Made by a program: the position numbers and the translations under genes. The notes under the pieces are model-generated. The model ran no database searches. It worked only from the letters and a program-made list of their open reading frames with translations, and was not told the DNA's origin. From positions 1,536,001 to 1,600,000 of the forward strand of contig OZ241841.1 in the NCBI GenBank assembly GCA_965202665.1: a DNA stretch of 64,000 bases, given 5' to 3'. Origin of the DNA: Candidatus Spongiisociaceae bacterium. GTDB lineage: Bacteria > Actinomycetota > Acidimicrobiia > Spongiisociales > Spongiisociaceae. Below, piece after piece: positions 36,975 to 56,856 of the stretch (its first letter is position 1; the number at the start of each line of letters is the position of its first letter).

Positions 36975-37066
36975 ACCTTAAAGCCAGGAAAGCGGAAAAC
37001 CCCACACGCAGAGGTCGCCTGCATTCTTTATTCCCGGGCGGAGGCGTCCGCTATAGCTGGCGTAAC

Positions 37067-37687: not shown

Positions 37688-37724
37688 GGCGGCCCTTTCT
37701 CCGATTGCGATAACGAGCGTTGGG

Positions 37725-38498: not shown

Positions 38499-38557
38499 CC
38501 CGCCTTCCGGTAGCTGATTCCCCAACCATACCCGCCGCCCGCGTTACAGTTTGGCCG

Positions 38558-39448: not shown

Positions 39449-39513
39449 CCAGCCGCCAGCGCCAAACCATTCGGGTTTCCGCTATGAGAGTTAGTACTCC
39501 TAGAGTGGGAGCT

Positions 39514-40308
39514 ATGACGGATGTTTCACCGATTTCCCCGCCGCCGGTTCCGACCGCCCCGGATGCGCCGACCGGTCCCGTCTTGCGGGTGGAGCAGGCG
39601 GCGGCGGAGGCGGGGGTGGGAGTGGACACCATCCGTTATTACCAGGGGATGGGGCTGTTGCCCCCGGTGGGACGGGATGGGCGCAACGCCCTATACGGGC
39701 CGGAGCATCTCACCAGGTTGCGCACCATCCGCGCCTTGGCCGACGATGGTTTCACCCTCGCCCAGATCAAACGGCTGTTGGCCGAAGCCGGCGACCCGTT
39801 GCTGGTCTCCCTGGTGGGGGGGGCGGACGGGCTGAGCCGGGACGAGTTGGCCGAACTTTCCGGCCTGGATCGGGAAATGGTGGACCTGGCCGCCTCCGCC
39901 GGCCTGATCCAACGGTTGGGCGGCCCGGATCAAACCGACGAAAGATTCGCCCCCGAAGCCGCCCCCATGCTGGCCGCGGGCCGCACTTTGCTGGAAGCCG
40001 GTTTTCCGATGCACCGTTTGGCCGCCCTGGCCGCCCGTCACGCCACCGGGGTGGAAGAGGTGGTGGACGAAGCGATTGACCTTTTCGCCGAATACGTGCG
40101 CCCCGGGCAGTCCGACCACCCGGATGAGTTGGCCCGCCTGTTCCGCACTCTGGCGGCCATGGTCGCCCGGTTGGTGGCCCAGCATTTTCAGCAGACGGTG
40201 TTCAACCGGACGCGGGAACGTCTGGCCGAATCCGATGACCGGGCCCTGATTGGAGCCTTGGAGGAGGCGGGACGGCGCAATCTGGTCATAACCGCCGAAT
40301 GGCGGTAG
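39514..40308 (+). CDS. MerR-family transcriptional regulator
   Basis: AAEAGVGVDTIRYYQ..GLLPP...GRNALY. Confidence 0.85.
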   Translation: MTDVSPISPPPVPTAPDAPTGPVLRVEQAAAEAGVGVDTIRYYQGMGLLPPVGRDGRNALYGPEHLTRLRTIRALADDGFTLAQIKRLLAEAGDPLLVSLVGGADGLSRDELAELSGLDREMVDLAASAGLIQRLGGPDQTDERFAPEAAPMLAAGRTLLEAGFPMHRLAALAARHATGVEEVVDEAIDLFAEYVRPGQSDHPDELARLFRTLAAMVARLVAQHFQQTVFNRTRERLAESDDRALIGALEEAGRRNLVITAEWR

Positions 40309-40318
40309 CGCGGCGGCG

Positions 40319-41707
40319 ATGAACCGGCGGGCCCGCCTGGCGGAGCGGTTGGCGGAGGCGGAAGCGCGGGCCGGGGCGTTGGGGCGGTCCGCCTTTTTCA
40401 CCTTGGCCGTTCCCGCCGGGGATAGGGCGGATCCCTTGGCGGCGGCGGTCGGCTCGGAGGCCCCTTTCGCTTTCTGGGAGCAACCGGCCCGCGGGATTTC
40501 GTTCGCCGCTTTGGGTTCCGCCCATTCCCTCCTCGTCTCCGGAGGGGCCGATCGGTTCACCGCTATGTCAAACGCCCTGCGGGAGTTGCGGGCCCGCACC
40601 TTGCATCAGTCGTGGGACGGGGCCGACCGGACCCCCCTTTTGATAGGAGGGTTTTCCTTCGCCGGCGACTCCGGTTGGCCGGGCTTTCCCGCCGGGCGGC
40701 TGACCTTGCCCGCGCTGGCCCTCATCCGCCGTCCGTCCGGGACGGCCTGGGTGGCGGCGGCGCGGGTTCGCCGGGGGGATGACCCGCATCGGTTGGCCGA
40801 CTCCCTCATGGAGCGGGTGGAGCGGGCCGACGCCCGTCCCCCGCCCGTCCCCCGCCCTGCCGCCCCCGACCTTCGGGCGGCGGCGGAGGCGGACCTGTCG
40901 GATCCCCTTTTCAGGGAGACGGCGCAAGCGGCCGTCGAAGAGACAATCAACGGCGGCCTGTCCAAAGTGGTTCCCGCCCGCCGTCTGACGGTGGAAAGAC
41001 GCCCCGACCCGGGCCCCTTCCTGGCCGCCCTGCGGGAACATTTCACCGAATGCGCCATCTTTGCCTTCGCCGCCCCGGAAGGTGTTTTCTGCGGGGCCAC
41101 CCCGGAACTTTTGGCCCGGGTGGAGGGAGTGTCGGTGTCCACCGCGGCGTTGGCGGGCACCGCTCGGCGCGGGGCGGACGCCGCGCAGGATGAAAACATC
41201 GCCCGATGGCTGCGCGGCGACCCCAAGCAGGCCGAGGAGCACGATTACGTGCATTCGGAGATACGCCGCCGTCTGCAACAGGGCGGTTTCGCAGTGGACC
41301 CCCCGGCGCCGACCGAGGTGATGCGGTTGCCCGGACTGCAGCATCTGCGCACCCCGGTCACCGCCGCCGCCCCGGTGGGAACCAACGTCTTGGACGTGAC
41401 CGGGGCCCTGCATCCCACCCCGGCCGTGGCCGGCCTTCCCACCGGGGAGGCTTTGGAATGGTTGCGGGCGCATGAGGGATTCGACCGAGGATGGTTCGCC
41501 GGTCCGGTCGGGTTCTGCGATCTGGCCGGGCAGGGCGAGTTTCACGCCGCGTTGCGGTGCGCCCTGTTGCGCCGGACTGATTGCGACCTGTTCGCCGGGG
41601 CGGGGGTGGTGGCCGCCTCCGTTCCCGAGCGGGAACTGGAGGAAACCGAACTGAAACTGCGGGCGTTGCTCCCCTGGGCGCTGGGCTCGGAACCGGCGCC
41701 GCCGTAA
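40319..41707 (+). CDS. menF: Isochorismate synthase
   Basis: KVVPAR, GATPELL, LAGT, LHPTPAV.G, RGWFAGPVG, AGAGVV. Confidence 0.88.
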   Translation: MNRRARLAERLAEAEARAGALGRSAFFTLAVPAGDRADPLAAAVGSEAPFAFWEQPARGISFAALGSAHSLLVSGGADRFTAMSNALRELRARTLHQSWDGADRTPLLIGGFSFAGDSGWPGFPAGRLTLPALALIRRPSGTAWVAAARVRRGDDPHRLADSLMERVERADARPPPVPRPAAPDLRAAAEADLSDPLFRETAQAAVEETINGGLSKVVPARRLTVERRPDPGPFLAALREHFTECAIFAFAAPEGVFCGATPELLARVEGVSVSTAALAGTARRGADAAQDENIARWLRGDPKQAEEHDYVHSEIRRRLQQGGFAVDPPAPTEVMRLPGLQHLRTPVTAAAPVGTNVLDVTGALHPTPAVAGLPTGEALEWLRAHEGFDRGWFAGPVGFCDLAGQGEFHAALRCALLRRTDCDLFAGAGVVAASVPERELEETELKLRALLPWALGSEPAPP

Positions 41708-41727
41708 AGGGGGTGGGAGGTGTTGAT

Positions 41728-43407
41728 GTGGTGAACGATGTGCGGGGCGGGGCTTATCGTACCGCGGCCGCGGTTTTGGGGGCGCTGGCCGAGTTGGGAA
41801 TGAGGACGGTGTTCGTCTCGCCCGGTTCCCGTTCGGCTCCCCTGGCGGCCTCCGCCGATGCTATGGCCGGTTTGGATGTCCGTATGATGTTGGACGAGCG
41901 TTGCGCCGGGTTCGCCGCTTTGGGGACGGCCGCCGCCTCCGGGCGGATGACCGGGCTGATCTGCACCTCCGGTTCGGCGGGGGCCCATTACCTGCCGGCC
42001 GCGGTGGAAGCCAACCGGGCCCGTATCCCCCTGGCTCTTCTAACCGCCGACCGCCCCCCCGGTTTTTTGGAACGGGACGCCCCGCAGACCATCGACCAAT
42101 CCAACCTGTTCGGAGCGCAGGTGCGGTCCTTCCTCGGCCTGCCCGTAGCCCACGAGGCGGAGCCGGGGGAGGCGGCCCGTCTGGTCTATGAGGCGGCCCG
42201 GGCCGGGTTGCCGCCCAACGCCGGGCCGGTGCACGTCAACCTGCCGTTCGCCAAGCCTTTGGAGCCGCCGCCCGAATGGGCGCCCGCCCCCCGCCCCGCC
42301 GGGGACGGAGAACCGCCGGAGGAGCCGGCCCCGCCCGCTCCGGAGTCGGTGGAGAAGATGCGCCGCTTCGCCGGGGAGGGGCGGCGGGGGCTGGTGGTAG
42401 CCGGGCCGAGGAGAGTCGGGCTGGCGGAGCGGGCCGCCCTGGCGGCGTGGGCGGCGGCGGCCGGATGGCCGATAGCGGCCGACCCGCTGTCCGGGTTGCG
42501 CACCGGCCCTTGCCCGCAGGTGATTTCCACCGGGGAGATGCTGGCGGGCGATGACCGGTTCGCCGCCGCCCACCGCCCGCAGGCCGTGTTGCGGGTGGGC
42601 GGAATCCCCACCGGCCGCCGCACCCAGCAGTGGCTGGAATCTTTGGAATGCCCGCAGTTGATACTCGATCCCGACCGGTGGTGGACCGCCCCCGGCCCGC
42701 AGACGGTGTTGCGGGACCCCCTGCCCGGTTTGCTGGCCGGGGCGCCGGCGGGGGCGGCGGACGGGGCTTGGGGGGAGGCTTGGCGGGAAGCCGACCGGGA
42801 AGCTTCCGTCCGCAGGCGGGAGGAGCGGCGGTCGCATCCGGATACGGAACCGGCCTTGGCGGCGGCGGTTCTGGAAAGGTCGGAGACGGTGTGGGTTGGG
42901 GGGAGTATGCCGGTCCGTCACTTGGATCTGATGATGGAAGCCGGCTCAGGGACGGCGGTGATGGGCGCCCGGGGGGCGTGCGGCATCGACGGCTCCGTCG
43001 CCGCCGCCGCCGGGGCCTCCTTGGGGACGGGAAAGCGGGTGACGGCCCTGATGGGCGACCTGGCTTTTCTGCATGATTTGGGTTCCCTTCCGGCGGCCGC
43101 CCGCATGGGGGCGGAGTTGACGGTGGCGGTGTTGGATAACGGGGGCGGGGCCATCTTCGGCATGTTGCCCATCGCCCGCTCCCCGGGAGTGGATTTGGAG
43201 CGGTTGTTCACTTTTCCCCATCATTTGGATTTGACGGAGGCCGCCTCCGGGCTGGGGGCGCGGGTGAGGCGGGCCGGAACGCTTGATATGCCGGGGGTTT
43301 TGGCGCAGGCGGCGGAGGAGGGCGGGACGTGGGTGGTGGTGGCGGAAACCGATCCCGGCCAGATGCGAGCCGTCTACCAACGACTGACCGGGGGTTGGCG
43401 GGAATAA
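41728..43407 (+). CDS. menD: SEPHCHC synthase
   Basis: SPGSRSAPL, DER.AGF.ALG, TADRP, GIDG, GDLAFLHD, DNGGGAIF. Confidence 0.92.
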   Translation: MVNDVRGGAYRTAAAVLGALAELGMRTVFVSPGSRSAPLAASADAMAGLDVRMMLDERCAGFAALGTAAASGRMTGLICTSGSAGAHYLPAAVEANRARIPLALLTADRPPGFLERDAPQTIDQSNLFGAQVRSFLGLPVAHEAEPGEAARLVYEAARAGLPPNAGPVHVNLPFAKPLEPPPEWAPAPRPAGDGEPPEEPAPPAPESVEKMRRFAGEGRRGLVVAGPRRVGLAERAALAAWAAAAGWPIAADPLSGLRTGPCPQVISTGEMLAGDDRFAAAHRPQAVLRVGGIPTGRRTQQWLESLECPQLILDPDRWWTAPGPQTVLRDPLPGLLAGAPAGAADGAWGEAWREADREASVRRREERRSHPDTEPALAAAVLERSETVWVGGSMPVRHLDLMMEAGSGTAVMGARGACGIDGSVAAAAGASLGTGKRVTALMGDLAFLHDLGSLPAAARMGAELTVAVLDNGGGAIFGMLPIARSPGVDLERLFTFPHHLDLTEAASGLGARVRRAGTLDMPGVLAQAAEEGGTWVVVAETDPGQMRAVYQRLTGGWRE

Positions 43408-43483
43408 GGCGGCGGCGGACCTAAGAAATCCCTATCATCCAGGGGTTTTTTTATCCCCGAATGGGCGGGCTGGGGGGATTTAC

Positions 43484-43512
43484 TTGACAAATTAGGGGGG
43501 GGGGGGTAGCGT
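43484..43512 (+). promoter_or_regulatory. Promoter with poly-G spacer (paralog 1, 17-bp spacer)
   Basis: TTGACA-AATTA-G12-TAGCGT. Confidence 0.75.
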
Positions 43513-43598
43513 TTTTCCCTGTTGGGCTTTACGGCGTGTGAGGTTGCCCGCCCGATGGCCTGCGTGGTTAAAGAAAATCCTGAGGAAGGAGGATGTAA

Positions 43599-46500
43599 AT
43601 GTCGGTTCGCGTGTCGGGGAAGGTTTGGCTTATAGGATTGTTGGTGTTGGGTTTGACGGCGAGTTTGCTGGGTGCGGCTCCGCCGGGTGCGGTGGGGACG
43701 CATGGGGATGATGCGGATGTGGATTATGAGCCATCGTATTCGGCCTGCGTGGGGGCGGCGACGGAGTCTTTCGGGTTTGAGGACACGGAAGGATCGTTCG
43801 CGGAGGAGGCTATCAATTGTTTGGCGCATTATGGGATCACCACCGGCCGGTCGGCGACGATGTTCGCTCCCAACGATTCGGTGTTGCGGTGGCAGATGGC
43901 CCTGTTTTTGGCGAGGGCGGCCGCGGCGGCGGGGATCGTGTTGGCGAACCCGGCTACCGATCAGGGTTTCACGGATGTTGGGGGAGTGTCGGGGGAGGCC
44001 CGTAACGCTATCAACGGTTTAGCGGCGGCGGGGATTATGCCCGGCACGTCGCAGACGACGTTTAGTCCGAATAGTTCGGTGACGCGTGGTTCCATGGCTG
44101 TGTTGTTGGATGCTTTCCTGGCGCGGGCGACGTTGGGGGCGGGGGCGTTTGGGGGTGAGATTGAGAAGCATTCGGATATAGAGGTGGATAATTTCAATGT
44201 GTTTAGCGATATTGATGGGGTGTCGTTGAATACGTATAATGCGATTTATCGTATTTATGAGGTGGGGGTGACGCAGGGGGTGGGTGATCATCAGTTCGGT
44301 CCGGGTCGTAACGTGACAAGGGCGCAGATGGCGGCCTTCATCACCCGGGCCTTTGCGCACACCGTAGCCCGTCCGGCCGGGGTGTCTATTCAGGCGGAGA
44401 AAGATTCGGTGTTGGGGGAGTCGTCGGTGCAACTTATTGTGTCGGTGCGGGATGCGATGTTTCAGCCGGTGGTGGATGCGTCGGTGGATGTGTTCCGTTC
44501 CACCGACCCTGACAACGCTCTGAAGGACGACGGGACTTGCGATACAGCCAGTGTTAGTCAGGTGGCTGGTATTGGCCGGGCGGCGTGTGAGGTGGATACG
44601 GGGGATGAAACAACGGACGCGGCGGGGGATGTTACCGCGTTGCAGTTGCAGGTGTCGGATGCGGATGTGACGGTGTGGGCGTGGACCGGGGACCGGGCTG
44701 ACAAGTTTGATTCCGATGACACCACCGCCGCCCAGCTGACCGTCGGTTTCTCCAAGGCGGCCAGCCAGTTGCTGGTGACCGACAATTTGGAGGAGGGGCA
44801 GACCCATCTGCAGTTTGGGGAAACAGCCACGCTGACGGTGCAGGTGGCTAATGAGGATGATGAGCCGGTGGCGGAGAAGGATGTGGGGGTGAAGGTCGCC
44901 CAGGTTACCACTCCGGATGTGAGCAAGACGACGGAAACTAACTCGTCAACCAACACCTATACCACTGATGCGTCGGGCAAGTTTCAGTTGTCGTTTACCC
45001 AGACCGATCCCAGTTCCGGTGATGATGAGGACGCAACGGTGGTGGTTACTTTGAGCGAACCGTCCTCTTATACACTCCAGGATGAAGACGGCGAGGCATT
45101 CGCCTCCAAAACCTACACTTGGTCCGACGAGGCGGGGGTTCCGGCCAAGTTGGTGTTGGAAACGCGGCAGGAGTACGCCGAAGCGTCCGATGAGGGCCGG
45201 GGGGCGGTGGCGGCGGTTACCGCCACTTTGACCGACCAGTTCGGCAACCCGGTGCGCGGCCAGCGAATCCACTTCTGGTCCGACGACCCAGCCGGAGTGG
45301 GCCAGAAATCGGACGATATTGCTCTGGAATGGGTGCGGAACGCAATCACTTTGGCCGCCACCGGTACTGTTAATTCGGCCAACGTCCAGTGGCGGCGAGT
45401 GGGTTTCCGCATTTTGCGGAATTTGATGCCCCAGGTTACTTACACCCGTACCACCAACCGGTCGGGTGCGGCCACATTGTCCTACAGCCGGGATGCGACG
45501 GGGGGCGTGATCGAGACGATCCGGGCCCGGTTGGTGCGGGGTGAGGACGACGCCACCACGAGGAGCGAGAGGTGGCCGTGGAGCCGCGCCAGCGAAGCGG
45601 AGGATCCCCGAGACCTGGTGAGCGAGAGGGCGACCTTTTATTGGGCCGAAGAGTTGGACGACGACGATTCGGCGAAAGGCCGGATTTTGGTGAAAGACGC
45701 CGATGCCCGCCGGCTGGTGTTCGGAGCTGATGACGGCCGGGTGAGAATGATCACCTACGACGGCAACGACCAGTTCCGAACGAACGGGACCCCAATCGTG
45801 ATGTCCGAGTTCGAAAAGTATCTGAAAGGCACCGCCGCTCATATCATCATCAACGAATATTCCGATACTGCGAGCGACGTCAGTTCGTTCGACACGACGG
45901 CGGAATGGCCGCAGGTGGATATGAGCAAGATTCCGGTGCCGCAGGCATCGGGACGGACGGTGGAGGCCGTTGGCAACGGCATGGTCATTTTAGCGGCCGA
46001 CGGCGGCGCTATCGTGGTCGGTTCTTTCTGGGAGAACAACTACGCCGGTGCGGTGTATGTCTTCGACGGGGTGGACGATGACGCCCCTCAGAAGTTGACC
46101 GCCCCCACTCCGCAACCCACCACTTTCACCGATAGCCATGTCACTAACCATTGGTATAACAAGCCGTGGGAATTCAACCTGCCGACTTCGGGAGGGCATT
46201 TCGGCTATGCGGTGGACATCCGGGGCGACACTATCGTGGTGGGCGAACCGGGCCGCCTCAGCACCCATACGATCAACAAAGGAACCTCCGACCCTCGGAC
46301 TGGGGTGGCAACCGACGGAGCGGTTTACGTTTACACCAAGAACGCTTCCGGCACCTGGGAGTTGGACGCCACGTTGACGTTGGCGGACTTCGTGGGCTCG
46401 GAGAACGGCCGGATCACCGGCGGTTGGGACGCGGGAATGGAGCTGGGCCGGTCAGTGGTGGTTTCCGAAGATGAAACCACCATCGCCGCCTCCGCACCCC

Positions 46501-47447
46501 GGTTTTTAACTAACCAGAACAGCCGACGAATGGGCGGGGTGCACATTTTCAAACGGCCCGATCAAACTGGCCGGAACACGGCAACCATCGGCAAATGGGA
46601 TGATGCTACGGGGGCCGCAACCTCCCGACTGGATGTGTCTACCAATTATATAAACACCAATAAAAACAGCGGAAACCGGACCTTGGCCCGCGATAGGGAG
46701 TTGGCTATTTCTCGAGATGGAAGCACGGTGGTAGTGGGCAACAGCTGGTTTAGCCGGGTGTTGGATAATGTGAAACATGATTGGGTGGGAGGGGCGTTTA
46801 TCTACACCGCCCCATCCGGCGGATGGGTAGCCGCCGCGCAATATGAGGAAGACACCGTCTTGCAGTCCCCCACCCCCTACTCCGGGGAGAGAATGGCCGT
46901 GTCGCTGGGGGTGTCCGCTGATGGAAGCACGGTGGTGGTGTCGGCTCACTTCCGGCCCGAGTTGATGCGACAAGGCAAGGTGCTGATCTACGAGAGGCCC
47001 GACCAGAGCGGCCGTTCCGCGGGCGACAAATGGGGCGACGCCGACAACCTGATGGACCCCAGCGCCGTTTTGACGCATCCTTTGGAGCATCCGGATAAGC
47101 CCGACGGTTGCTTGGCTTCGGCCGGTCCGGTGCTGGGATGCAACATTGGGGAGACTTTCGGACAATGGGTGGACATCAACGATGCCGGCGACCGTATTCT
47201 GGCCGCCCACCCCGCCCGTACCGAAGGCCGCTATCTGGGTTCCACGCGTCTCTTCACCGAGCCGGCGGGCGGCTGGTCGACGGTCACCGCCGACAACCAG
47301 CCCTCTTCGGTGGAGTTCTTAGGGGCGGACCCCGGGGCTTTCGCGGGATGGCGAAACCATTTCGATCAAGACACCGGCGACATCTACATGATGGATTCCG
47401 ATCCCGACGCCAATGGCGCCGTCCGCGCCTACAAAATAACGCCTTAG
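43599..47447 (+). CDS. Surface (S-layer) protein paralog 1: SLH domains, Ig-like region, FG-GAP-like beta-propeller
   Basis: Signal peptide; SLH motifs (FAPNDSVLRWQMA, FGPGRNVTRAQMA); repeats of FGYAVDI..DTIVVG and GAVYV. Confidence 0.85.
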   Translation: MSVRVSGKVWLIGLLVLGLTASLLGAAPPGAVGTHGDDADVDYEPSYSACVGAATESFGFEDTEGSFAEEAINCLAHYGITTGRSATMFAPNDSVLRWQMALFLARAAAAAGIVLANPATDQGFTDVGGVSGEARNAINGLAAAGIMPGTSQTTFSPNSSVTRGSMAVLLDAFLARATLGAGAFGGEIEKHSDIEVDNFNVFSDIDGVSLNTYNAIYRIYEVGVTQGVGDHQFGPGRNVTRAQMAAFITRAFAHTVARPAGVSIQAEKDSVLGESSVQLIVSVRDAMFQPVVDASVDVFRSTDPDNALKDDGTCDTASVSQVAGIGRAACEVDTGDETTDAAGDVTALQLQVSDADVTVWAWTGDRADKFDSDDTTAAQLTVGFSKAASQLLVTDNLEEGQTHLQFGETATLTVQVANEDDEPVAEKDVGVKVAQVTTPDVSKTTETNSSTNTYTTDASGKFQLSFTQTDPSSGDDEDATVVVTLSEPSSYTLQDEDGEAFASKTYTWSDEAGVPAKLVLETRQEYAEASDEGRGAVAAVTATLTDQFGNPVRGQRIHFWSDDPAGVGQKSDDIALEWVRNAITLAATGTVNSANVQWRRVGFRILRNLMPQVTYTRTTNRSGAATLSYSRDATGGVIETIRARLVRGEDDATTRSERWPWSRASEAEDPRDLVSERATFYWAEELDDDDSAKGRILVKDADARRLVFGADDGRVRMITYDGNDQFRTNGTPIVMSEFEKYLKGTAAHIIINEYSDTASDVSSFDTTAEWPQVDMSKIPVPQASGRTVEAVGNGMVILAADGGAIVVGSFWENNYAGAVYVFDGVDDDAPQKLTAPTPQPTTFTDSHVTNHWYNKPWEFNLPTSGGHFGYAVDIRGDTIVVGEPGRLSTHTINKGTSDPRTGVATDGAVYVYTKNASGTWELDATLTLADFVGSENGRITGGWDAGMELGRSVVVSEDETTIAASAPRFLTNQNSRRMGGVHIFKRPDQTGRNTATIGKWDDATGAATSRLDVSTNYINTNKNSGNRTLARDRELAISRDGSTVVVGNSWFSRVLDNVKHDWVGGAFIYTAPSGGWVAAAQYEEDTVLQSPTPYSGERMAVSLGVSADGSTVVVSAHFRPELMRQGKVLIYERPDQSGRSAGDKWGDADNLMDPSAVLTHPLEHPDKPDGCLASAGPVLGCNIGETFGQWVDINDAGDRILAAHPARTEGRYLGSTRLFTEPAGGWSTVTADNQPSSVEFLGADPGAFAGWRNHFDQDTGDIYMMDSDPDANGAVRAYKITP

Positions 47448-47469
47448 TCGCTTCACGCAACCCAACACG

Positions 47470-47510
47470 ACAGGAAACCCCCCGCACCGAAGCGGGGGGC
47501 TTTCCTGTTT
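47470..47510 (+). terminator. Intrinsic terminator after paralog 1
   Basis: CAGGAAACCCCCCGC...GCGGGGGGCTTTCCTG-TTT. Confidence 0.8.
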
Positions 47511-47552
47511 AAACCAAACTTCAGGGGATGGGGGCGGGTTGGAGGGATTGAC

Positions 47553-47579
47553 TTGACAAATTGGGGGGGGGGGTAGCGT
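47553..47579 (+). promoter_or_regulatory. Promoter with poly-G spacer (paralog 2, 15-bp spacer)
   Basis: TTGACA-AATT-G11-TAGCGT. Confidence 0.7.
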
Positions 47580-47671
47580 TTTAGTCTGTTGGGCTTTACG
47601 GCGTGTGAGGTTGCCCGCTGAGTGGTCTGCGTAGTTAACGAAAAATCCTGGATTCGGAAGGAGGAATGATA

Positions 47672-50600
47672 ATGGCGGCTCGTGTGTTGGGTAGGGTTTG
47701 GCTTGTAGGATTGTTGGTGTTGGGTCTGGTGGCCAGTTTGTTGGGTGCGGCTCCGCCGGGTGCGGTGGGGACGCATGGGGATGATGCGGATGTGGATTAT
47801 GAGCCGTCGTATTCGGCCTGTGTGGGGGCGGCGACGGAGTCTTTCGGGTTTGAGGACACGGAAGGGTCGTTCGCGGAGGGGGCGATTGATTGTTTGGCGC
47901 ATTATGGGATAACGACCGGTCGGTCGGCGACGATGTTTGCTCCCAATGATTCGGTGTTGCGGTGGCAGATGGCCCTGTTTTTGGCGAGGGCGGCCGCGGC
48001 GGCGGGGATCGTGTTGGCGAATCCGGCTGCTGATCAGGGGTTTACGGATGTGGGGGCGGTGTCGGGGGAGGCCCGTAACGCTATCAACGGTTTAGCGGCG
48101 GCGGGAATCATGCCCGGCATGTCGCAGACGACGTTTAGTCCGAATAGTTCGGTGACGCGTGGTTCCATGGCTGTGTTGTTGGACGCTTTCCTGGCGCGGG
48201 CGACTCCGGGGGCGGGGGCGTTTGGGGGTGAGATTGAGAAGTATTCGGATGTGATGGTGGATAGTTCCGATGTTTTCAATGATATTAGTGGGGTGTCGTT
48301 GAATACTTATAATGCGATTTATCGTATTTATGAGGTGGGGGTGACGCAGGGGGTGGGGGATCATCAGTTCGGGCCGGGTCGTAATGTGACGCGGGCGCAG
48401 ATGGCGGCGTTTATCACGAGGGCGTTTGCGCATACGGTGGCTCGTCCGGCGGGGGTGTCGATTCAGGCGGAGCGGGATTCGGTGTTGGGGGAGTCGTCGG
48501 TGCAGTTGATTGTGTCGGTGCGGGATGCGATGTTTCAGCCGGTGGTGGATGCGTCGGTGGATGTGTTCCGTTCCACCGATCCCGACAACGCTTTGAAGGA
48601 CGACGGCACATGCGATACAGCTAGTGTTGGTCAGGTGGCTGGTATTGGCAGGGCGGCGTGTGAGGTGGATACGGGGGATGAGACGACTGATGCGGCGGGG
48701 GACGTTACCGCGTTGCAGTTGCAGGTGTCGGATGCGGATGTGACGGTGTGGGCGTGGACCGGGGACCGGGATGACAAGTTCGATTCCGACGACACGGCTT
48801 CGGCGCAGTTGACCGTCGGTTTCTCTAAGGCGGCCAGCCAGTTGTTGGTGACCGACAATTTGGAGGAGGGGCAGACCCATTTGCAGTTCGGGGAAACGGC
48901 TACGTTGACGGTGCAGGTGGCTAATGAGGATGATGAGCCGGTGGCGGAGAAGGGGGTGGGGGTGAAGGTCGCCCAGGTTACCACTCCCGATGTGAGCAAG
49001 ACGACGGAGACCAACTCGTCCACCAATACCTATACCACTGACGCGTCGGGCAAGTTTCAGTTGTCGTTCACCCTGACCGATCCCAGCTCCGGCGACGATG
49101 AGGACGCGACGGTGGCGGTTACTTTGAGCGAACCGTCCTCTTATTCCCTCCAAGACGAAGACGGCACCGCATTCTCCTCCAAGACCTACACTTGGTCCGA
49201 TGATGTGGGGGTTCCGGCCAAGTTGGTGTTGGAAACGCAGAATATGTGGGCCGAGGCGTCGGATGAGGGCCGGGGGGCGGTAGCGGCGGTTACCGCCACT
49301 TTGACCGACCAGTTCGGCAACCCGGTACGGGGACAGCGAATCCACTTTTGGTCCGACGACCCAGCCGGGGTAAGTGAGAAATCTGAAGATGCCCTGTTGG
49401 CCAGGGTGCGGACCACCGCCACCAGCGGCAGCCAAAATTCCCACAAGGATTTTCACTTCACCGTGTTGCATGATTTGATCGGCGAGGCTCAGTACGCGCG
49501 TACTACCAACCGGGCGGGTAGGGCTGTATTGACCTACAACCGGGATGCGACGGCGGGTGTCATTGAGACGGTGCGGGCCCGAATAATACGGGGAGCGGAC
49601 GACGCCAAAAGAGTAAGCGACGACGACCCTGATCTGTTGAGCGAGAAAGTGTCTTTCTTTTGGGCTGAAGAGTTGGACGACGACGATTCGGATTCTGGTC
49701 GAATTTTGGTGAAGGAGGCGGACGCCCGGCGGGTGGTGTTTGCGGCCCAGGATGGCCGGGTGAGAATGATCACCTACGATGGCAACGACCAGTTCCGGCG
49801 GGCGGGCGTTCCGATAACGAGTGCGGATTTTGAAAAATATCTGAAAGACACCGCCGCCCATATTACGGTCAACATTTATTCCGACACCGCAGGCGGCGTC
49901 AGTTCGTTTGACGCGACGGCGGAATGGCCGTCTACCGATCTGACCGAAATTCCGGTTCCGACGGCGTTGGGTCAGACCGCCACCGAACTCCACAACGGAA
50001 TGATTCATTACGCGGTAGATAGTGACACGATCGTGGTTGGTTCTTTCATGGATAACAACTACGCCGGCGCGGTATACGTTTACGACGGGGTGGACGATGA
50101 AACACCCCAGAAGTTGACCGCTCCCACCCCGCAACCCACCACTTTCACTGGGGATTGGCGTACCGCTGCTTGGAACCTCAAGCCGTGGTCTCTCAACCTG
50201 GCGATTTCGGGAGGGCAGTTCGGCTATGCGGTGGATATCCGGGGCGATACCATCGTGGTGGGAGAGCCCGGTCGTTTGAGCAACAGTGTTATAGCCGCTT
50301 CCCGCGTTCGTAATGGAGTCACCCAGGCTAGCATCCGGAATGGGCGGGCGGCCGACGGCGCGGTTTACGTTTACACCAAGAACAGTTCCGGAACCTGGGA
50401 GTTGGACGCCACTTTGACGGCCAACGGCTCCACTTTGCGCGGGGGGCGGATACCGTTGAACGACTGGGGGGCGAGAGGGTTTCAGATGGGCAGGGCGGTG
50501 GCGGTCTCCGGCGACGAAACCCACATTGCCGCTAGCACTCCCGGCTTCCTAACCGTCCAAAGGCGGATAGGCGGGGCCTTCGTGTTTGAACGGCCCGACC

Positions 50601-51463
50601 AAACCGGACGGAACACGGCAACCAACGGCAAATGGGACGATGATAACGGAGCCAACTCGGACCGCTTTGAGCCGGGAGCCGACAACGTGAACCAAAACCA
50701 AAATCGTTGGAGCGAGCTTTTCGGGGCGGACCGGGAGTTGGCGATCTCGAACAACGGGCTGACGGTGGTGGTGGGGGCCCACTACTTCAACCGAACAGTG
50801 GAGGGGGTGCGATACACCTGGGGAGGAGGGGCGTATATCTTCACCAGCGCTGACTGGAATGACGGCACGGCAAACATTTATGAACAGGACGCCGTCCTGA
50901 ACTCCCCCAACCCGTACACGTCTGAGGGGTTTGGGGCGTCGGTGGCGGTGGACGACGACGGGTCGACGGTGGTGGTTTCCGCCAACTTCCGTCCCAACAT
51001 GTTACGACGGGGCAAAGCCCTGATCTTCGAACGTCCCGACCAGTCCGGACGTTCCGCCAACAACCAATGGGAGAACGAGATGAATCCCACCGCTGTCCTC
51101 ACGGCCCCGGATCATCCAGACGCGCCTGATAATTGCACGGCCGCAGCCGGCCCGGTGCTGGGATGCAACATCGGAGAGGTGTTCGGACAGTGGGTGGACA
51201 TCACCGGCGACGGCGGGAAAATCTTAGCCTCCCGGGGTTTCCGGACCGAGGGCGCCCTGCGGGGTTCAAGCCTTATCTTCACCGAACCGGCCGGCGGTTG
51301 GTCGACGGTCACCGCCGACCGGCAACCCTCCAATGTGGAATATCTGGGCTCCGAACTGGAATCGCTACTTGGATGGCGCAACCATTTCGACCAAGCCAAC
51401 GGCAAGTTTTACGTCTATGAGGAACCCGAGGGCGGGATACTCATATACCAGATAACGCCTTAG
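47672..51463 (+). CDS. Surface (S-layer) protein paralog 2
   Basis: N-terminal ~560 aa nearly identical to paralogs 1 and 3; RBS GGAGG. Confidence 0.85.
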   Translation: MAARVLGRVWLVGLLVLGLVASLLGAAPPGAVGTHGDDADVDYEPSYSACVGAATESFGFEDTEGSFAEGAIDCLAHYGITTGRSATMFAPNDSVLRWQMALFLARAAAAAGIVLANPAADQGFTDVGAVSGEARNAINGLAAAGIMPGMSQTTFSPNSSVTRGSMAVLLDAFLARATPGAGAFGGEIEKYSDVMVDSSDVFNDISGVSLNTYNAIYRIYEVGVTQGVGDHQFGPGRNVTRAQMAAFITRAFAHTVARPAGVSIQAERDSVLGESSVQLIVSVRDAMFQPVVDASVDVFRSTDPDNALKDDGTCDTASVGQVAGIGRAACEVDTGDETTDAAGDVTALQLQVSDADVTVWAWTGDRDDKFDSDDTASAQLTVGFSKAASQLLVTDNLEEGQTHLQFGETATLTVQVANEDDEPVAEKGVGVKVAQVTTPDVSKTTETNSSTNTYTTDASGKFQLSFTLTDPSSGDDEDATVAVTLSEPSSYSLQDEDGTAFSSKTYTWSDDVGVPAKLVLETQNMWAEASDEGRGAVAAVTATLTDQFGNPVRGQRIHFWSDDPAGVSEKSEDALLARVRTTATSGSQNSHKDFHFTVLHDLIGEAQYARTTNRAGRAVLTYNRDATAGVIETVRARIIRGADDAKRVSDDDPDLLSEKVSFFWAEELDDDDSDSGRILVKEADARRVVFAAQDGRVRMITYDGNDQFRRAGVPITSADFEKYLKDTAAHITVNIYSDTAGGVSSFDATAEWPSTDLTEIPVPTALGQTATELHNGMIHYAVDSDTIVVGSFMDNNYAGAVYVYDGVDDETPQKLTAPTPQPTTFTGDWRTAAWNLKPWSLNLAISGGQFGYAVDIRGDTIVVGEPGRLSNSVIAASRVRNGVTQASIRNGRAADGAVYVYTKNSSGTWELDATLTANGSTLRGGRIPLNDWGARGFQMGRAVAVSGDETHIAASTPGFLTVQRRIGGAFVFERPDQTGRNTATNGKWDDDNGANSDRFEPGADNVNQNQNRWSELFGADRELAISNNGLTVVVGAHYFNRTVEGVRYTWGGGAYIFTSADWNDGTANIYEQDAVLNSPNPYTSEGFGASVAVDDDGSTVVVSANFRPNMLRRGKALIFERPDQSGRSANNQWENEMNPTAVLTAPDHPDAPDNCTAAAGPVLGCNIGEVFGQWVDITGDGGKILASRGFRTEGALRGSSLIFTEPAGGWSTVTADRQPSNVEYLGSELESLLGWRNHFDQANGKFYVYEEPEGGILIYQITP

Positions 51464-51485
51464 CCGCTTCACGCAACCCAACACG

Positions 51486-51525
51486 ACGGGAAGCCCCCCG
51501 CACCGAAGCGGGGGGCTTCCTGTTT
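51486..51525 (+). terminator. Intrinsic terminator after paralog 2
   Basis: GGAAGCCCCCCGC...GCGGGGGGCTTCC-TGTTT. Confidence 0.8.
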
Positions 51526-51568
51526 ACCCCAAACTTCAGGGGATTGGGGCGGGTTGGGGCGGATTGAC

Positions 51569-51597
51569 TTGACAAATTAGGGGGGGGGGGGTAGCGT
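51569..51597 (+). promoter_or_regulatory. Promoter with poly-G spacer (paralog 3, 17-bp spacer)
   Basis: TTGACA-AATTA-G12-TAGCGT. Confidence 0.75.
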
Positions 51598-51689: not shown

Positions 51690-54600
51690 ATGTCGGTTCG
51701 CGTGTCGGGGAAGGTTTGGCTTGTAGGATTGTTGGTGTTGGGTTTGACGGCGAGTTTGCTGGGTGCGGCTCCGCCGGGGGCGGTGGGGACGCATGGGGAT
51801 GATGCGGATGTTGATTATGAGCCATCGTATTCGGCCTGCGTGGGGGCGGCGACGGAGTCTTTCGGGTTTGAGGACACGGAGGGGTCGTTCGCGGAGGGGG
51901 CGATTGATTGTTTGGCGCATTATGGGATCACCACGGGACGGTCGGCGACGATGTTCGCTCCCAATGATTCGGTGTTGCGGTGGCAGATGGCCCTGTTTTT
52001 GGCGAGGGCGGCCGCGGCGGCGGGGATCGTGTTGGCGAACCCGGCGGCTGATCAGGGTTTCACGGATGTGGGGGCGGTGTCGGGGGAGGCCCGTAACGCT
52101 ATCAACGGTTTAGCGGCGGCGGGAATCATGCCTGGTGTGTCGCAGACGACGTTTAGTCCGAATAGTTCGGTGACGCGTGGTTCCATGGCTGTGTTGCTGG
52201 ACGCGTTTTTAGCGCGGGCGACGTTGGGGGCGGGGGCGTTTGGGGGTGAGATTGAGAAGTATTCGGATATAGAGGTGGATAATTTCAATGTGTTTAGCGA
52301 TATTGATGGGGTGTCGTTGAATACTTATAATGCGATTTATCGGATTTATGAGGTGGGGGTGACGCAGGGGGTGGGGGATCATCAGTTCGGGCCGGGTCGT
52401 AATGTGACGCGGGCGCAGATGGCGGCGTTCATCACCCGGGCGTTTGCGCACACCGTAGCCCGTCCGGCCGGGGTGTCCATACAAGCGGAGAAAGATTCGG
52501 TGCTGGGGGAATCATCGGTGCAACTTATCGTATCGGTGCGGGATGCGATGTTTCAGCCGGTGGTGGATGCGTCGGTGGATGTGTTCCGTTCCACCGATCC
52601 CGACAACGCGTTGAATGATGATGGCAGGTGTAATGCGGCCAGTGTTGGTCAGGTGGCTGGTATCGGCAGGGCGGCTTGTGAGGTGGATACGGGGGATGAG
52701 ACTACGGACGCGGCGGGGGATATCACCTCCTTGCAACTGCAGGTGTCGGATGCGGATGTGACGGTGTGGGCGTGGACCGGGGACCGGGCTGACAAGTTTG
52801 ATTCCGATGACACCACCGCCGCCCAGTTGACCGTCGGGTTTTCCAAGGCGGCCAGCCAGTTGTTGGTGACTGACAATTTGGAGGAGGGGCAGACCCGTTT
52901 GCAGTTCGGGGAGACGGCTACGCTGACGGTGCAGGTGGCTAATGAGGATGATGAGCCGGTGGCGGAGAAGGGGGTGGGGGTGAAGGTCGCCCAGGTTACT
53001 ACTCCGGATGTGAGCAAGGCGACGGAGACCAACTCGTCCACCAACACCTATACCACGGACGCTACCGGGAAGTTTCAGTTGTCGTTTACCCAGACCGATC
53101 CCAGTTCCGGTGATGATGAGGACGCAACGGTGGTGGTTACTTTGAGCGAACCGTCCTCTTATTCCCTCCAAGACGAAGACGGGACCGCGTTCTCCTCCAA
53201 GACCTACACCTGGTCCGATGATGTGGGGGTTCCGACCAAACTGGTGTTGGAAACCCGGCAGATGTGGGCCGAAGCGTCTGAAGAGGGCCGGGGGGCGGTG
53301 GCGTCGGTTACCGCCACTTTGACCGACCAGTTCGGCAACCCGGTGCGGGGCCAGCGAATTCATTTCTGGTCCGATGACCCAGCCGGGGTAAGCGAGAAAT
53401 CTGAAGATGCCCTGTTGACCAGGGTGCGGACCACCGCTGCCAGCGACGCCAACAATATCCATCGTGCTTTTCCCTTCACCGTGTTGCATAATCTGGTCGG
53501 TGAGGCTCAGTACGCGCGTACCACCAACCGGGCAGGCGCGGCCACATTGACCTACAACCGGGATGCGACGGCGGGTGTCATCGAGACGGTGCGGGCCCGG
53601 ATGATACGGGGGGAGGACGACGCTAAAAGAGAAAGCGGCGACGACCCCGATCTGTTAAGCGATAAAGTGTCTTTCTTTTGGGCTGAAGAGTTGGACGACG
53701 ACGATTCGGATTCTGGTCGAATTTTGGTGAAGGAGGAGGACGCCCGGCGGGTGGTGTTTGCGGCTGAGGATGGCCGGGTGAGAATGATCACCTACGATGG
53801 CAACGACCAGTTCCGGCGGGCGGGCGCTCCGATAACGAGTGCGGATTTTGAAAAATATCTGAAAGACACCGCCGCCCATATTACGGTCAACATTTATTCC
53901 GACACCGCAGGCGGCGTCAGTTCGTTCGACGCGACGGCGGAATGGCCGTCTACCGATCTGCCCAAAATTCCGGTTCCGACGGCGCTGGGCCGGACCGTCA
54001 CCAGGCTCCACAACGGAATGATTCATTACGCGGTGGATGGGGGCACGATCGTGGTTGGTTCTTTCTTGGAGAACAACTACGCCGGCGCGGTGTACGTTTA
54101 TGACGGGGTGGGCGATGAAACGCCCCAGAAGTTGACCGCCCCCACCCCGCAACCCACCACTTTCACCGGGGATTGGACTACCACTGCTTGGAACGTCAAG
54201 CCGTGGTCTCTCAACTTGGCGACTTCGGGAGGGCAGTTCGGTTATGCGGTGGATATCCGGGGCGACACCATCGTGGTGGGAGAGCCCGGTCGTTTGAGCA
54301 ACAGTGTCATAGCCGCTTCCCGCGTTCGTAATGGAGTGACCCAGACTAGCATCCGGAACGGGCGGGCAGCCGACGGCGCGGTTTACGTTTACACCAAGAA
54401 CAGTTCCGGAACCTGGGAGTTGGACGCCACTTTGACGGCTAACGGCTCCACTTTGCGCGGGGGACGGATACCGTTGAACGACTGGGGGGCGAGAGGGTTT
54501 CAGATGGGCCTGGCGGTGGCGGTCTCCGGCGACGAAACCCACATTGCGGCCAGCACTCCCGGCTTCTTAACCGTCCAAAGGCGGATAGGCGGGGCCTTCG

Positions 54601-55466
54601 TGTTTGAACGGCCCACCAGTGCTGCCAACGGCAAATGGGACGATGACAACGGGGCCAACTCGGACCGCTTTGAGCCGGGAGCCGACAACGTGAACGAAAA
54701 CCAAAATCGTTGGAGCGAGCTTTTCGGGGCGGACCGGGAGTTGGCGATCTCGAACAACGGACTGACGGTGGTGGTGGGGGCCAACCTTTTCAACCGAACA
54801 GTGGAGGGGGTGCGATACACCTGGGGGGGAGGGGCGTATATCTTTACCAGCACCAACTGGAATGACGGCGCGGCGGACATTTATGAACAGGACGCCGTCC
54901 TGAACTCCCCCAACCCGTTCTGGGCTGAGAAGTTTGGCCGGTCGGTGGCGGTGGACGATGACGGGTCGACGGTGGTGGTTTCCTCCAACTTCCGTCCCAA
55001 CATGTTGCGACGGGGCAACGCGCTGATCTACGAACGTCCAGCCGGACCTCTAGACAACGACCAATGGGAGGACGAGATGAATCCCACCGCTATCCTCACC
55101 GCCCCGGATCATCCAGACGCGCCTGATAATTGCACGGCCGCGTTGGGCCCGGTGCTGGGATGCAACGTTGGGGAGGTGTTCGGACAGTGGGTGGACATCA
55201 CCGGCGACGGCGAGAAGATCTTAGCCTCCCGGGGTTACCGGACCGAGGGCGCCCTGCGGGGTTCAACCCTTCTCTTCACCGAACCGTCCGGCGGCTGGTC
55301 GACGGTCACCGCCGACCGGCAACCCTCCAATGTGGAATATCTGGGTTCCGAACTGGAGGGGCTGTTTGGATGGCGCAACCATTTCGACCAAGCCAGCGAC
55401 AACGACGATATTTACTCCTATGAGGATCCCGAAGGCGGGATACTCATATACCAGATAACGCCTTAG
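51690..55466 (+). CDS. Surface (S-layer) protein paralog 3
   Basis: Same architecture as paralogs 1 and 2; C-terminal half closest to paralog 2. Confidence 0.85.
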   Translation: MSVRVSGKVWLVGLLVLGLTASLLGAAPPGAVGTHGDDADVDYEPSYSACVGAATESFGFEDTEGSFAEGAIDCLAHYGITTGRSATMFAPNDSVLRWQMALFLARAAAAAGIVLANPAADQGFTDVGAVSGEARNAINGLAAAGIMPGVSQTTFSPNSSVTRGSMAVLLDAFLARATLGAGAFGGEIEKYSDIEVDNFNVFSDIDGVSLNTYNAIYRIYEVGVTQGVGDHQFGPGRNVTRAQMAAFITRAFAHTVARPAGVSIQAEKDSVLGESSVQLIVSVRDAMFQPVVDASVDVFRSTDPDNALNDDGRCNAASVGQVAGIGRAACEVDTGDETTDAAGDITSLQLQVSDADVTVWAWTGDRADKFDSDDTTAAQLTVGFSKAASQLLVTDNLEEGQTRLQFGETATLTVQVANEDDEPVAEKGVGVKVAQVTTPDVSKATETNSSTNTYTTDATGKFQLSFTQTDPSSGDDEDATVVVTLSEPSSYSLQDEDGTAFSSKTYTWSDDVGVPTKLVLETRQMWAEASEEGRGAVASVTATLTDQFGNPVRGQRIHFWSDDPAGVSEKSEDALLTRVRTTAASDANNIHRAFPFTVLHNLVGEAQYARTTNRAGAATLTYNRDATAGVIETVRARMIRGEDDAKRESGDDPDLLSDKVSFFWAEELDDDDSDSGRILVKEEDARRVVFAAEDGRVRMITYDGNDQFRRAGAPITSADFEKYLKDTAAHITVNIYSDTAGGVSSFDATAEWPSTDLPKIPVPTALGRTVTRLHNGMIHYAVDGGTIVVGSFLENNYAGAVYVYDGVGDETPQKLTAPTPQPTTFTGDWTTTAWNVKPWSLNLATSGGQFGYAVDIRGDTIVVGEPGRLSNSVIAASRVRNGVTQTSIRNGRAADGAVYVYTKNSSGTWELDATLTANGSTLRGGRIPLNDWGARGFQMGLAVAVSGDETHIAASTPGFLTVQRRIGGAFVFERPTSAANGKWDDDNGANSDRFEPGADNVNENQNRWSELFGADRELAISNNGLTVVVGANLFNRTVEGVRYTWGGGAYIFTSTNWNDGAADIYEQDAVLNSPNPFWAEKFGRSVAVDDDGSTVVVSSNFRPNMLRRGNALIYERPAGPLDNDQWEDEMNPTAILTAPDHPDAPDNCTAALGPVLGCNVGEVFGQWVDITGDGEKILASRGYRTEGALRGSTLLFTEPSGGWSTVTADRQPSNVEYLGSELEGLFGWRNHFDQASDNDDIYSYEDPEGGILIYQITP

Positions 55467-55489: not shown

Positions 55490-55527
55490 CGGGAGGCCTC
55501 CCGCTAAAGCGGGGGGCTTCCTGTTTT
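55490..55527 (+). terminator. Intrinsic terminator after paralog 3
   Basis: GGGAGGCCTCCCGC-TAAA-GCGGGGGGCTTCCTG-TTTT. Confidence 0.75.
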
Positions 55528-55550: not shown

Positions 55551-56825
55551 TCAGCCGGGGCGCCGGGCGGCGGCGGCCCGCGCCGGGCGGGGGGAGCCGC
55601 CGTCGTCGATGGGCAGGTGGATGAGCATGGCGAACAGCCCCAGCCCTATGGCCGCCAGCCACACCGCCCGGTAGTCGCCGGTGGCGTCGAACAGGCGGCC
55701 TCCCAGCCACACTCCCAGAAACGACCCTATCTGATGGCTGAAAAACACCACGCCGAACATGGTGGACAGATACCGCACTCCGCCCAGGTGGGCGGCGGTG
55801 GCGGAAGTGAGGGGGACGGTGGCCAGCCAGACGAACCCGATGGCCGCCCCGAAGACGATGGCCGTGACCGGGGTGAGCGGGACGGCCAACAGCCCGATCA
55901 TCAGCGCGGTGCGGGCGGCGTAGAGGGCGGCCAGCAGGCTCCGTTTGCGGAAAAAGTTTCCGAGGTAGCCGAAGACCGCCGACCCGGCGATGTTGAACAG
56001 GCCGATGGCGGCCAGGGAAAAGGACGCCGCCCGCAAGGACAGGCCCCGGTCCGTCAGGTAGGCGGGAAGGTGGGTGGCTACGAACCCCACGTGAAACCCG
56101 CACACGAAGAAACCGGAGTTGAGCAACAGGTAGCTGCGGTTGAGGGCTTTCCCGGTCAGGGTTCGCAAAGACAGGTCGGTACCTTCTCCTCCGGCGGAGT
56201 CTTCCCGGCGTCCGGGAAAAGCCCAGGCCAGGGCGGCCATTACCACGGAAGAAGCGGCGATTATTCCGAAGGAGGGGCGCCACCCGACCAGTTCTATGGC
56301 CGCCTCGAAGGCGGGGGCCAGGACGAACATTCCCAGGGAGGCGGCGGCGGTTATCAACCCCAGGGCGGTGGTGCGTTGCGCTTCGGGGGCCAACTGCCCG
56401 ACGGCGGCGATCACCAACGCCAGGGAAACGGCGCTCATCCCCACTCCGGCGGCCACTCCCAACAGCAACACCAGCCCGGCCCCCGATTCCGCCGCCGACG
56501 CCCCCAGCATGGCCGCCCCATACACCGCCGACCCGGCCGCCAGGATGTAACGGTGGTTGAACCGGTCGGCCAGGTAGGCGGCGATGGGGAAGCCCATTAT
56601 CAGGTTGAGCAGGGCCACCGCCAGGCTGAAAGTTTCCCGGCCCGTTCCCAGGCCGTCGCTCACCGCCGGCAGGAACACCCCCAGCGAAGCCCGGGTTCCC
56701 ATAATCAAAAAAACGATCCCGGATCCGGCCGCGGTGACCCCCCATATTCCCCGCCCTCTTTTTCCGCTCCCGGAGAGCAGGGCGGAGGGGCTCCCGCCGG
56801 TCGGGCGGGGGGCGCGGTCGGTCAT
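55551..56825 (-). CDS. MFS transporter
   Basis: About 12 TM helices; GFFVCGFHVGFVATHLPAYL, FFSHQIGSFLG. Confidence 0.9.
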   Translation of the reverse strand: MTDRAPRPTGGSPSALLSGSGKRGRGIWGVTAAGSGIVFLIMGTRASLGVFLPAVSDGLGTGRETFSLAVALLNLIMGFPIAAYLADRFNHRYILAAGSAVYGAAMLGASAAESGAGLVLLLGVAAGVGMSAVSLALVIAAVGQLAPEAQRTTALGLITAAASLGMFVLAPAFEAAIELVGWRPSFGIIAASSVVMAALAWAFPGRREDSAGGEGTDLSLRTLTGKALNRSYLLLNSGFFVCGFHVGFVATHLPAYLTDRGLSLRAASFSLAAIGLFNIAGSAVFGYLGNFFRKRSLLAALYAARTALMIGLLAVPLTPVTAIVFGAAIGFVWLATVPLTSATAAHLGGVRYLSTMFGVVFFSHQIGSFLGVWLGGRLFDATGDYRAVWLAAIGLGLFAMLIHLPIDDGGSPRPARAAAARRPG

Positions 56826-56856
56826 CGGCGGCCTTTCCGGGTCGGGGCGGCGGCGG

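Follow-up and report, generated by a model that had tools for sequence, protein, structure and literature searches.

Three tandem surface-protein genes with poly-G runs in predicted promoter spacers

The window analyzed here, a stretch of 64,000 nucleotides (nt) from the chromosome of a Candidatus Spongiisociaceae bacterium, carries three paralogous surface-protein genes in tandem, referred to as A, B and C, each preceded by a motif in which a run of G fills most of the space between a -35 and a -10 hexamer. Gene A (43599-47447, + strand) encodes a protein of 1282 amino acids (aa) with a signal-peptide-like N-terminus, three SLH repeats, a weakly matching Ig-like stalk and a C-terminal FG-GAP beta-propeller. 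Gene B (47672-51463, + strand) encodes 1263 aa when the start is picked by its spacing to the ribosome binding site, or 1265 aa from the first ATG at 47666. Gene C (51690-55466, + strand), which extends beyond the end coordinate of the initial annotation, encodes a paralog of 1258 aa.

The predicted promoter A (43484-43512, + strand) consists of TTGACA (43484-43489), AATTA, a run of twelve G (G12, 43495-43506) and TAGCGT (43507-43512). Its spacer measures 17 bp, or 16 bp when the tract is G11. Predicted promoter B (47553-47579, + strand) is composed of TTGACA, AATT, G11 (47563-47573) and TAGCGT, with a spacer of 15 bp that becomes 16 bp with G12, and predicted promoter C (51569-51597, + strand) again combines TTGACA, AATTA, G12 (51580-51591) and TAGCGT with a 17-bp spacer. 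These coordinates and tract lengths agree with the three motifs and the 17/15/17 spacing initially annotated. A search for TTGACA-N13..20-TAGCGT across the whole window returned these three matches and no more, and 0 of 100 shuffled controls contained any match.

An ATG together with an AGGAGG ribosome site lies 86-92 nt downstream of each motif. As promoter, leader and 5' coding DNA of A, B and C are paralogous, the three copies are not independent events. The -35 hexamer is perfect, the -10 hexamer TAGCGT matches the sigma-70 consensus at 3 of 6 positions, and a TG extension is absent. A consensus promoter scan did not flag the motifs, since TAGCGT offers only these three matches. All three are placed where a sigma-70-type promoter would be predicted.

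Predicted architecture of the encoded proteins

Pfam profiles for SLH (PF00395) and FG-GAP_2 scored above cut-off in proteins A, B and C, and sub-threshold Ig-like hits were located near residues 540-650. Residues 1-500 are 90-100% identical among the three proteins. Beyond residue 500, the identity of A to B or C falls to 41-72%, while B and C share 83-92% in this part and about 83-97% per 100-residue bin. Six further paralogs in the genome diverge more than A, B and C do.

An AlphaFold model of residues 770-1282 of protein A, built from a 79-sequence alignment, was all-beta with a predicted local distance difference test (pLDDT) score of 87.9. Its best structural match was the integrin alpha propeller (Z 28.2, root mean square deviation 3.3, 353 aligned residues, 15% identity), and the C-terminal part of A thus resembles integrin-alpha FG-GAP propellers in its modeled fold. 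WD40 propellers matched nearly as well (Z 26.9). Because of this close second match and the sequence identity of 15%, the propeller fold by itself gives no ligand or function. The propeller part was present in 5 of 41 genomes searched, all of them belonging to this genus and one sister genus.

The three proteins are predicted to be wall-anchored; anchor and stalk are conserved, and the propeller at the tip varies. Their initial designation as S-layer paralogs holds with respect to paralogy and to the SLH anchor, which is present in A, B and C. An identity as a lattice S-layer is at most putative; the distal part is a predicted propeller on an Ig-like stalk. A profile of these proteins matches the SLH domains of Sap (E 1.5e-7), a resemblance limited to the anchor. 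Altogether, the predicted adhesin-like arrangement of SLH repeats, Ig-like stalk and integrin-alpha-like propeller suits an adhesin at least as well as a lattice-forming S-layer protein.

Predicted poly-G promoters form a genome-wide family

The genome is a single contig of 2.77 Mb with 64% G+C and is 94% complete. The best solved matches of its RpoB are mycobacterial and Streptomyces entries, which points to Actinomycetota, and the Atlas look-alike cluster consists mostly of Actinomycetota at a low score of 0.76. A MenB search did not narrow this down to a class, which is presumably Acidimicrobiia. Runs of G or C number 96 at a length of 8, one at 9, none at 10, then 24, 28 and 14 at lengths of 11, 12 and 13, with nine longer. 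The 75 runs of at least 11 compare with an expectation of about 2 or fewer, extrapolated from lengths 5-8. A hard floor at G11, with nearly no runs of 9-10, is seen both in this genome (1 + 0) and in that of a sister species from the same genus, G001 (none). TTGACA precedes 24 of the 75 tracts, and in 24/24 of these cases TAnnnT follows within 0-1 nt. Over-long simple repeats in predicted promoters or reading frames are found genome-wide, and poly-G stands between putative -35 and -10 hexamers at every tract preceded by TTGACA. What had been annotated as a three-gene system turns out to be 3 of 24 such promoters.

Of the 56 called SLH genes, 21 have the motif upstream; among the remaining 2216 called genes, it occurs at 2. 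Among called SLH genes of at least 1100 aa, 21 of 31 carry it. Of 172 candidates, the SLH search scored 150, and the rough gene caller missed four of the SLH hits. One of the two non-SLH genes with the motif is a paralog of the motif-bearing SLH giants and the other is a methylase-like locus; a further motif precedes an SLH open reading frame (ORF) at the contig start. In total, 23 of the 24 motifs serve large SLH-type genes. The motif before the methylase-like locus reads TTGACA-AAAC-G11-TAGCGT (846179-846205; L018), and small SLH genes of G001 (L025, L027, L189) are also preceded by the promoter cassette, which, judged by its sequence, seems to have been recruited beyond large surface genes. 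A sense-strand run of C12-13 lies 110-200 nt ahead of each of three giant SLH genes with about 10400, 8060 and 12700 codons (1141275-1172471, 1652302-1676484 and 2390346-2428400, respectively) and is not part of a clear -35/-10 spacer there.

The spacers of the 24 motifs measure 15 bp in eight cases, 16 bp in eleven and 17 bp in five. At other TTGACN..TAnnnT sites, counted upstream of 1256 genes, spacers of 15, 16, 17, 18 and 19 bp occurred 0, 7, 18, 13 and 6 times, respectively. As these counts peak at 17 bp and are zero at 15 bp, 17 bp is the preferred spacing of this genome and 15 bp is unused.

Tract length differs within and between samples at promoter A

The stretch was found in 19 sequencing runs, including sponge and marine metagenomes from seven studies, none of them listed as RNA. 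The evidence on variants comes from assembled contigs, not reads, and the run termed X1 may be the source sample of the assembly. At promoter A, a 31-mer is able to span the G run plus one locus-specific base. In X1, a unique contig of 9508 nt with a depth of 141 covers the upstream side and stops at the eleventh G; it is continued by two A-specific pieces of 40 nt, one with G12 at a depth of 66.5 and one with G11 at a depth of 55. The assembly contains no copy of the G11 form of promoter A, and the sequence flanking it downstream is unique. Run X4 showed G11 at a depth of 59.7 of 60.8, and in run X5 G11 lies inside a single contig of 9554 nt; both runs stem from two studies other than that of X1 and carry G11 where the assembly has G12.

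Contigs with AATTA followed by G11, for which A or C is the only source, occurred in X1, X2 and X3. Among the 25 of 34 pieces listed, no A-specific bridging piece was seen in X3, and no piece had G10 or G13. At promoter B, contigs break at the tract, and a comparison over 12.4 kb could not separate the paralogs there. The heterogeneity in tract length expected from the initial annotation was thus recovered at contig level for one locus, as G12 and G11 within X1 and as G11 in X4 and X5. Slippage of the tract at promoter A is likely and has direct support at contig level. Promoter tracts are mostly G11 or G12 whatever the fixed part, with G11 at about half of the motifs, near the 45:55 proportion at promoter A, and this suggests a two-state mutational toggle like that of Campylobacter jejuni.

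Differences between G11 and G12 could also be homopolymer errors of sequencing or assembly, or fixed differences between co-resident strains, the tracts themselves being stable. Such an origin would be compatible with evidence made up of contigs only, from libraries whose types are not on record, and Logan contigs can hide the single-nucleotide bubbles that would reveal two strains. Random error, on the other hand, would not be expected to produce a split near 45:55 with neither G10 nor G13 among the pieces listed, nor the clean G11 of X4 and X5 in place of the assembled G12. Moreover, a contig of 2347 nt from X1 that runs across gene A matches the assembly with 0 differences, and two separately assembled species share the same mode of 11-12. 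We therefore consider a technical or strain artefact improbable.

Long tracts in restriction and defence genes

A second large group of tracts, 31 of the 75, falls in or at ORFs with restriction or defence hits. This count comes from 20 regions selected for holding tracts and is to be read as a tally rather than as a test of enrichment. In two HmaB methylases the tract interrupts the gene, with profile positions 9-116 on one side and positions from 144 onward on the other. The tract likewise splits genes for an HmaA helicase and a Type III Mod (L171) as well as an hsdS gene (L166). At the Hma-like defence loci L158, L160, L167 and L173, HmaB or HmaA is broken exactly at a poly-G/C tract. In a tandem array of three Type ISP genes, the reading frame stays open across the equivalent tract in one copy and ends at it in the other two. 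This Type ISP array (L162, 1214500-1233000) contains 11 poly-G tracts, several of them in or after the C-terminal specificity region, and is a possible multi-state specificity switch as read from the sequence.

Surface-gene promoters and defence genes together account for 55 of the 75 long tracts. These are classic contingency classes, which argues against a purely neutral origin of the tracts (discussed below), with the limit that the defence regions were picked for their tracts.

The arrangement is retained in relatives

We tallied 41 genomes, including the unpublished G039, on which no conclusion depends, with G001 representing the sister species and G004, G009 and G013 a sister genus. G001 has 81 tracts of at least 11 and 44 distinct promoter motifs, of which 19 have spacers of 15 bp, 16 of 16 bp, two of 17 bp and seven are longer. 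Its three closest homologs of gene A have spacers of 16, 15 and 15 bp. One paralog of gene A in G001 is preceded by tandem poly-G promoters 310 nt apart (L180:9440 and 9750), with spacers of 16 and 15 bp. The sister genus, in which runs of 9-10 do occur, has 18, 15 and 2 motifs in G004, G009 and G013, respectively, with other hexamers (TTGACT, TTGATT; TAGTAT, TAGCAT). Hexamers and flanks have diverged there, and the G run is retained in the spacer. Two other genomes yielded a single loose match each, and in 34 of the 41 there was no match; many of these assemblies are fragmented and may have lost their tracts.

Several such genes of G004 and G009 contain a second tract in the signal-peptide codons, which is in frame or out of frame depending on the copy. 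Loci with a second tract are L001, L005, L195, L196, L199, L208 and L212-L215 (G004, G009) and L181 (G001). Promoter tract and signal-peptide tract together would form a double lock, acting by transcription and by frameshift.

The position of the run also bears on the idea that it serves as a structure or binding site, such as a two-tier G-quadruplex or a regulator site, controlling transcription or recombination between paralogs, with changes in length being incidental. A G-quadruplex at pilE provides a precedent. The floor of 11 equals 2+1+2+1+2+1+2, the minimum length of a two-tier G-quadruplex, and the paralogs have a mosaic structure in which the 5' half is conserved and the 3' half has been exchanged or has diverged. 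Against this stand the placement of the run exactly in the -35/-10 spacer, the presence of runs of 11-13 within coding sequences in either orientation, where they shift the reading frame, and the runs of 9-10 in the sister genus. A structural role as the primary function is, in our estimation, very unlikely.

Beyond these relatives, a GTDB-wide scan returned at least 123 TTGACA-polyG-TAnnnT stretches in many phyla, mostly one or two per genome. The scan shows that the bare design is widespread at the level of sequence, part of the matches presumably arising by chance as the scan had no control set. A Dehalococcoidia and a Kiritimatiellia metagenome-assembled genome (L036-L037, L071-L072, L096) have at least two motifs each, in some cases at a distance of about 4 kb, so paralog arrays of this type may exist in other phyla as well. 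A scan of JGI metagenomes returned two unrelated matches and no copies of this promoter and gene family. Searches of the open-access literature for phase variation in sponge symbionts or Acidimicrobiia returned nothing on the subject. The terms 'phase vari' and 'homopolymer' are absent from the main text of two sponge-symbiont genomics papers (PMC11706023, PMC11410982).

Predicted terminators and neighbouring genes

The initial annotation had each gene insulated by its own terminator. A G+C-rich hairpin indeed lies 3' of each gene, yet the terminator scan flagged the one after gene A only, and the insulation is a prediction. The hairpin 3' of gene A (47469-47509, + strand) has 17 bp, is G+C-rich and is a predicted intrinsic terminator. 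A 17-bp hairpin 3' of gene B (51485-51524, + strand), unflagged by the scan, and a 15-bp hairpin 3' of gene C (55490-55523), which faces a convergent MFS transporter gene, are predicted terminators as well. In the gap between menD and promoter A, a hairpin with a T-rich 3' arm (43423-43451, + strand) is the predicted terminator of the men operon. With an RNAfold energy of -20.6 kcal/mol for 43405-43470, it is weaker than the hairpins after genes A, B and C.

Most of the neighbouring genes were named from their translations, and these names are our assumption. Upstream (36000-43407 of the window) lie genes which we take to be ordinary panB-like, menB, isochorismate-synthase-like and menD genes. 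The ORF directly upstream of promoter A (menD) contains three TPP-enzyme domains according to Pfam. Downstream (55551-63500) follow genes presumably encoding the MFS transporter, a nicotinate phosphoribosyltransferase-like and a nicotinamidase-like protein, tRNA-Ala, tRNA-Arg, and nucleoside hydrolase-like and ribokinase-like proteins. Elsewhere in the window, the tRNA that ARAGORN called at 24765-24846 has a stop anticodon and is doubtful.

A model for combinatorial expression of surface proteins

Taken together, we regard functional phase variation at these loci as probable. According to this model, each of the genes A, B and C would be transcribed from its own sigma-70-type promoter, whose -35/-10 spacer is mostly the G run. 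Replication slippage would flip this run between 11 and 12, and its length would set the transcription strength of the respective paralog. By the rules that govern sigma-70 promoters, a perfect -35 hexamer combined with a weak -10 hexamer (3/6) and no TG extension should render activity dependent on spacing, a spacer of 15 bp being off and spacers of 16-17 bp being on. The 4 or 5 nt of the spacer that stay fixed would then decide the type of toggle: promoters of the B type would alternate between 15 and 16 bp (off/on), and those of the A and C type between 16 and 17 bp (lower/higher).

Because tracts almost never fall below G11 and the fixed part of A and C has 5 nt, these two promoters mostly move between 16 and 17 bp. 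As read from sequence, A and C may act less as on/off switches than as dimmers and may rarely go fully off, and only B likely reaches the 15-bp off state. The initially proposed ON/OFF/ON state is thus plausible for the consensus assembly, given that other sites of the genome peak at 17 bp with none at 15 bp, but its wording as a set of on/off switches may not suit A and C. Cells would accordingly display differing mixtures of wall-anchored surface proteins by phase variation of simple sequence repeats, possibly with independent switching of the loci as initially proposed, and the variable distal propeller would be the part met by phages or sponge cells.

A profile search of the 94%-complete genome found NucS and did not find MutS_V or a MutL domain; RbpA was likewise not found in it. 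NucS-type repair is described as not correcting insertions and deletions (PMC8228993). NucS without MutS and MutL removes a brake on slippage. This constellation is phylum-wide and explains nothing specific to the present loci.

Several observations weigh against the model. The promoter role of the motifs, the start site and the effect of tract length on expression are all inferred from sequence. Compensation of tract length for the fixed part was tested and not found, as G11 occurs in 8 of 15 loci with 4 fixed nt versus 5 of 9 with 5 fixed nt (Fisher p=1). As a result, selection on total spacer length is not apparent. In two paralogs that lack a G tract, the spacer is fixed at 16 bp; for this reason a 16-bp spacing is probably active, which blurs the threshold between on and off. 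The 24 copies share ancestry and do not represent 24 independent origins. Twenty of the 75 tracts fall in neither the promoter nor the defence class, several of them being located upstream of giant SLH genes. The frameshifts in defence genes rest on one consensus assembly in which homopolymer errors are possible. Finally, the polymorphism is resolved at promoter A alone, and with library types not on record it could reflect co-resident strains or platform error.

Some of these points would equally fit a neutral mutational sink, in which runs that reach 9 expand to 11-12 when insertions and deletions go unrepaired. A single ancestral promoter with such a run would have been copied along with the gene family, and its length would vary with little change in, or no selection on, expression. 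The hard G11 floor in both genomes of the genus, the missing compensation between tract and fixed part and the shared ancestry of the copies are in line with such a scenario, and the modal tract length of Campylobacter jejuni has been ascribed to the mutational pattern rather than to selection (PMC3401435). A neutral sink does not readily account for the concentration of tracts in the two contingency classes described above, for the retention of a spacer tract in two genera whose promoters have diverged, or for the second tract in 5' codons. Furthermore, 8 of the 24 spacers measure 15 bp, a spacing unused by the other TTGACN..TAnnnT sites upstream of genes. On balance, we judge the neutral sink to be unlikely, though less so than artefact or structural role, and favor phase variation by slippage in the promoter spacers.

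In its widest form, the phase-variation model would place 24 surface proteins (44 in G001) on G11/G12 toggles, which would make it one of the larger arrays of switched promoters, each toggle being set to off/on or low/high by a one-base offset in the spacer. This would give millions of heritable surface barcodes of integrin-alpha-like propellers and giant fibres, shuffled with about 30 tract sites in defence genes, under selection by phages or sponge phagocytes in a likely mutualist whose host has no adaptive immunity. We put this extended scenario forward as tentative, and rather doubtful in its entirety.

Comparison with known systems

In Campylobacter fetus, the sap genes encode S-layer-type paralogs that share their anchor ends and differ in their distal parts, expressed from one promoter that is moved by DNA inversion. 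The layout of anchor and variable part is similar to that of A, B and C, but here every gene has its own promoter motif. A sap-type inversion switch was considered for this locus and rejected, since A, B and C are all equipped with a separate promoter motif and a full 5' end.

The closest precedents for the promoter are Neisseria meningitidis porA and Treponema pallidum tp0126, surface-protein genes which likewise have a poly-G tract in the promoter spacer and for which a 17-nt optimum is described (PMC7864442). In relation to this optimum, other sites of the present genome peak at 17 bp with none at 15 bp, B spans 15/16 bp, and A and C mostly 16/17 bp. Whereas porA and tp0126 are single genes of diderm pathogens, the present family comprises 24 loci (44 in G001) in a member of the Actinomycetota that is likely a sponge symbiont, and its tract lengths, unlike those of porA and tp0126, are mostly confined to 11-12.

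The closest precedent for the gene family is vlp of Mycoplasma hyorhinis, with which maa2 and vmm can be grouped; paralogous surface proteins have separate transcripts and a promoter-spacer repeat each, resulting in combinatorial coats (PMC10502178, PMC2268961, PMC11868660). By comparison, motif and downstream hairpin are present at 3/3 genes here, and the motif at 21 of 31 called SLH genes of at least 1100 aa genome-wide. The vlp genes use poly-A and encode lipoproteins, in contrast to poly-G and SLH-anchored proteins of 1200-4500 aa here, which are dispersed on the chromosome and have more copies.

Regarding the genome-wide pattern, C. jejuni offers the best parallel. Its poly-G tracts mostly act as frameshifts. 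Lengths of G/C runs across its genome are bimodal with a mode, and the runs are in surface and restriction-modification genes (PMC3401435, PMC4889913). Short tracts tend to gain and long tracts to lose bases (PMC3401435), and for strain NCTC11168 a mode of 9 with 29 loci is given (PMC4965091). The genome studied here differs in its mode of 11-12, its 75 tracts and the third of them that are promoter spacers.

A genus living in sponges carries 75-81 long tracts per genome, part of them likely random expression switches of the sort seen in pathogens. Sponges have no antibodies, and phage, phagocytosis or the niche within the host are candidates for the force selecting surface switching, with the predicted integrin-alpha-like propeller tips as plausible host-contact modules. 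Most likely, the switch mechanism is the textbook one, its setting in what is likely a non-pathogenic sponge associate is unexpected, and its scale is unusual.

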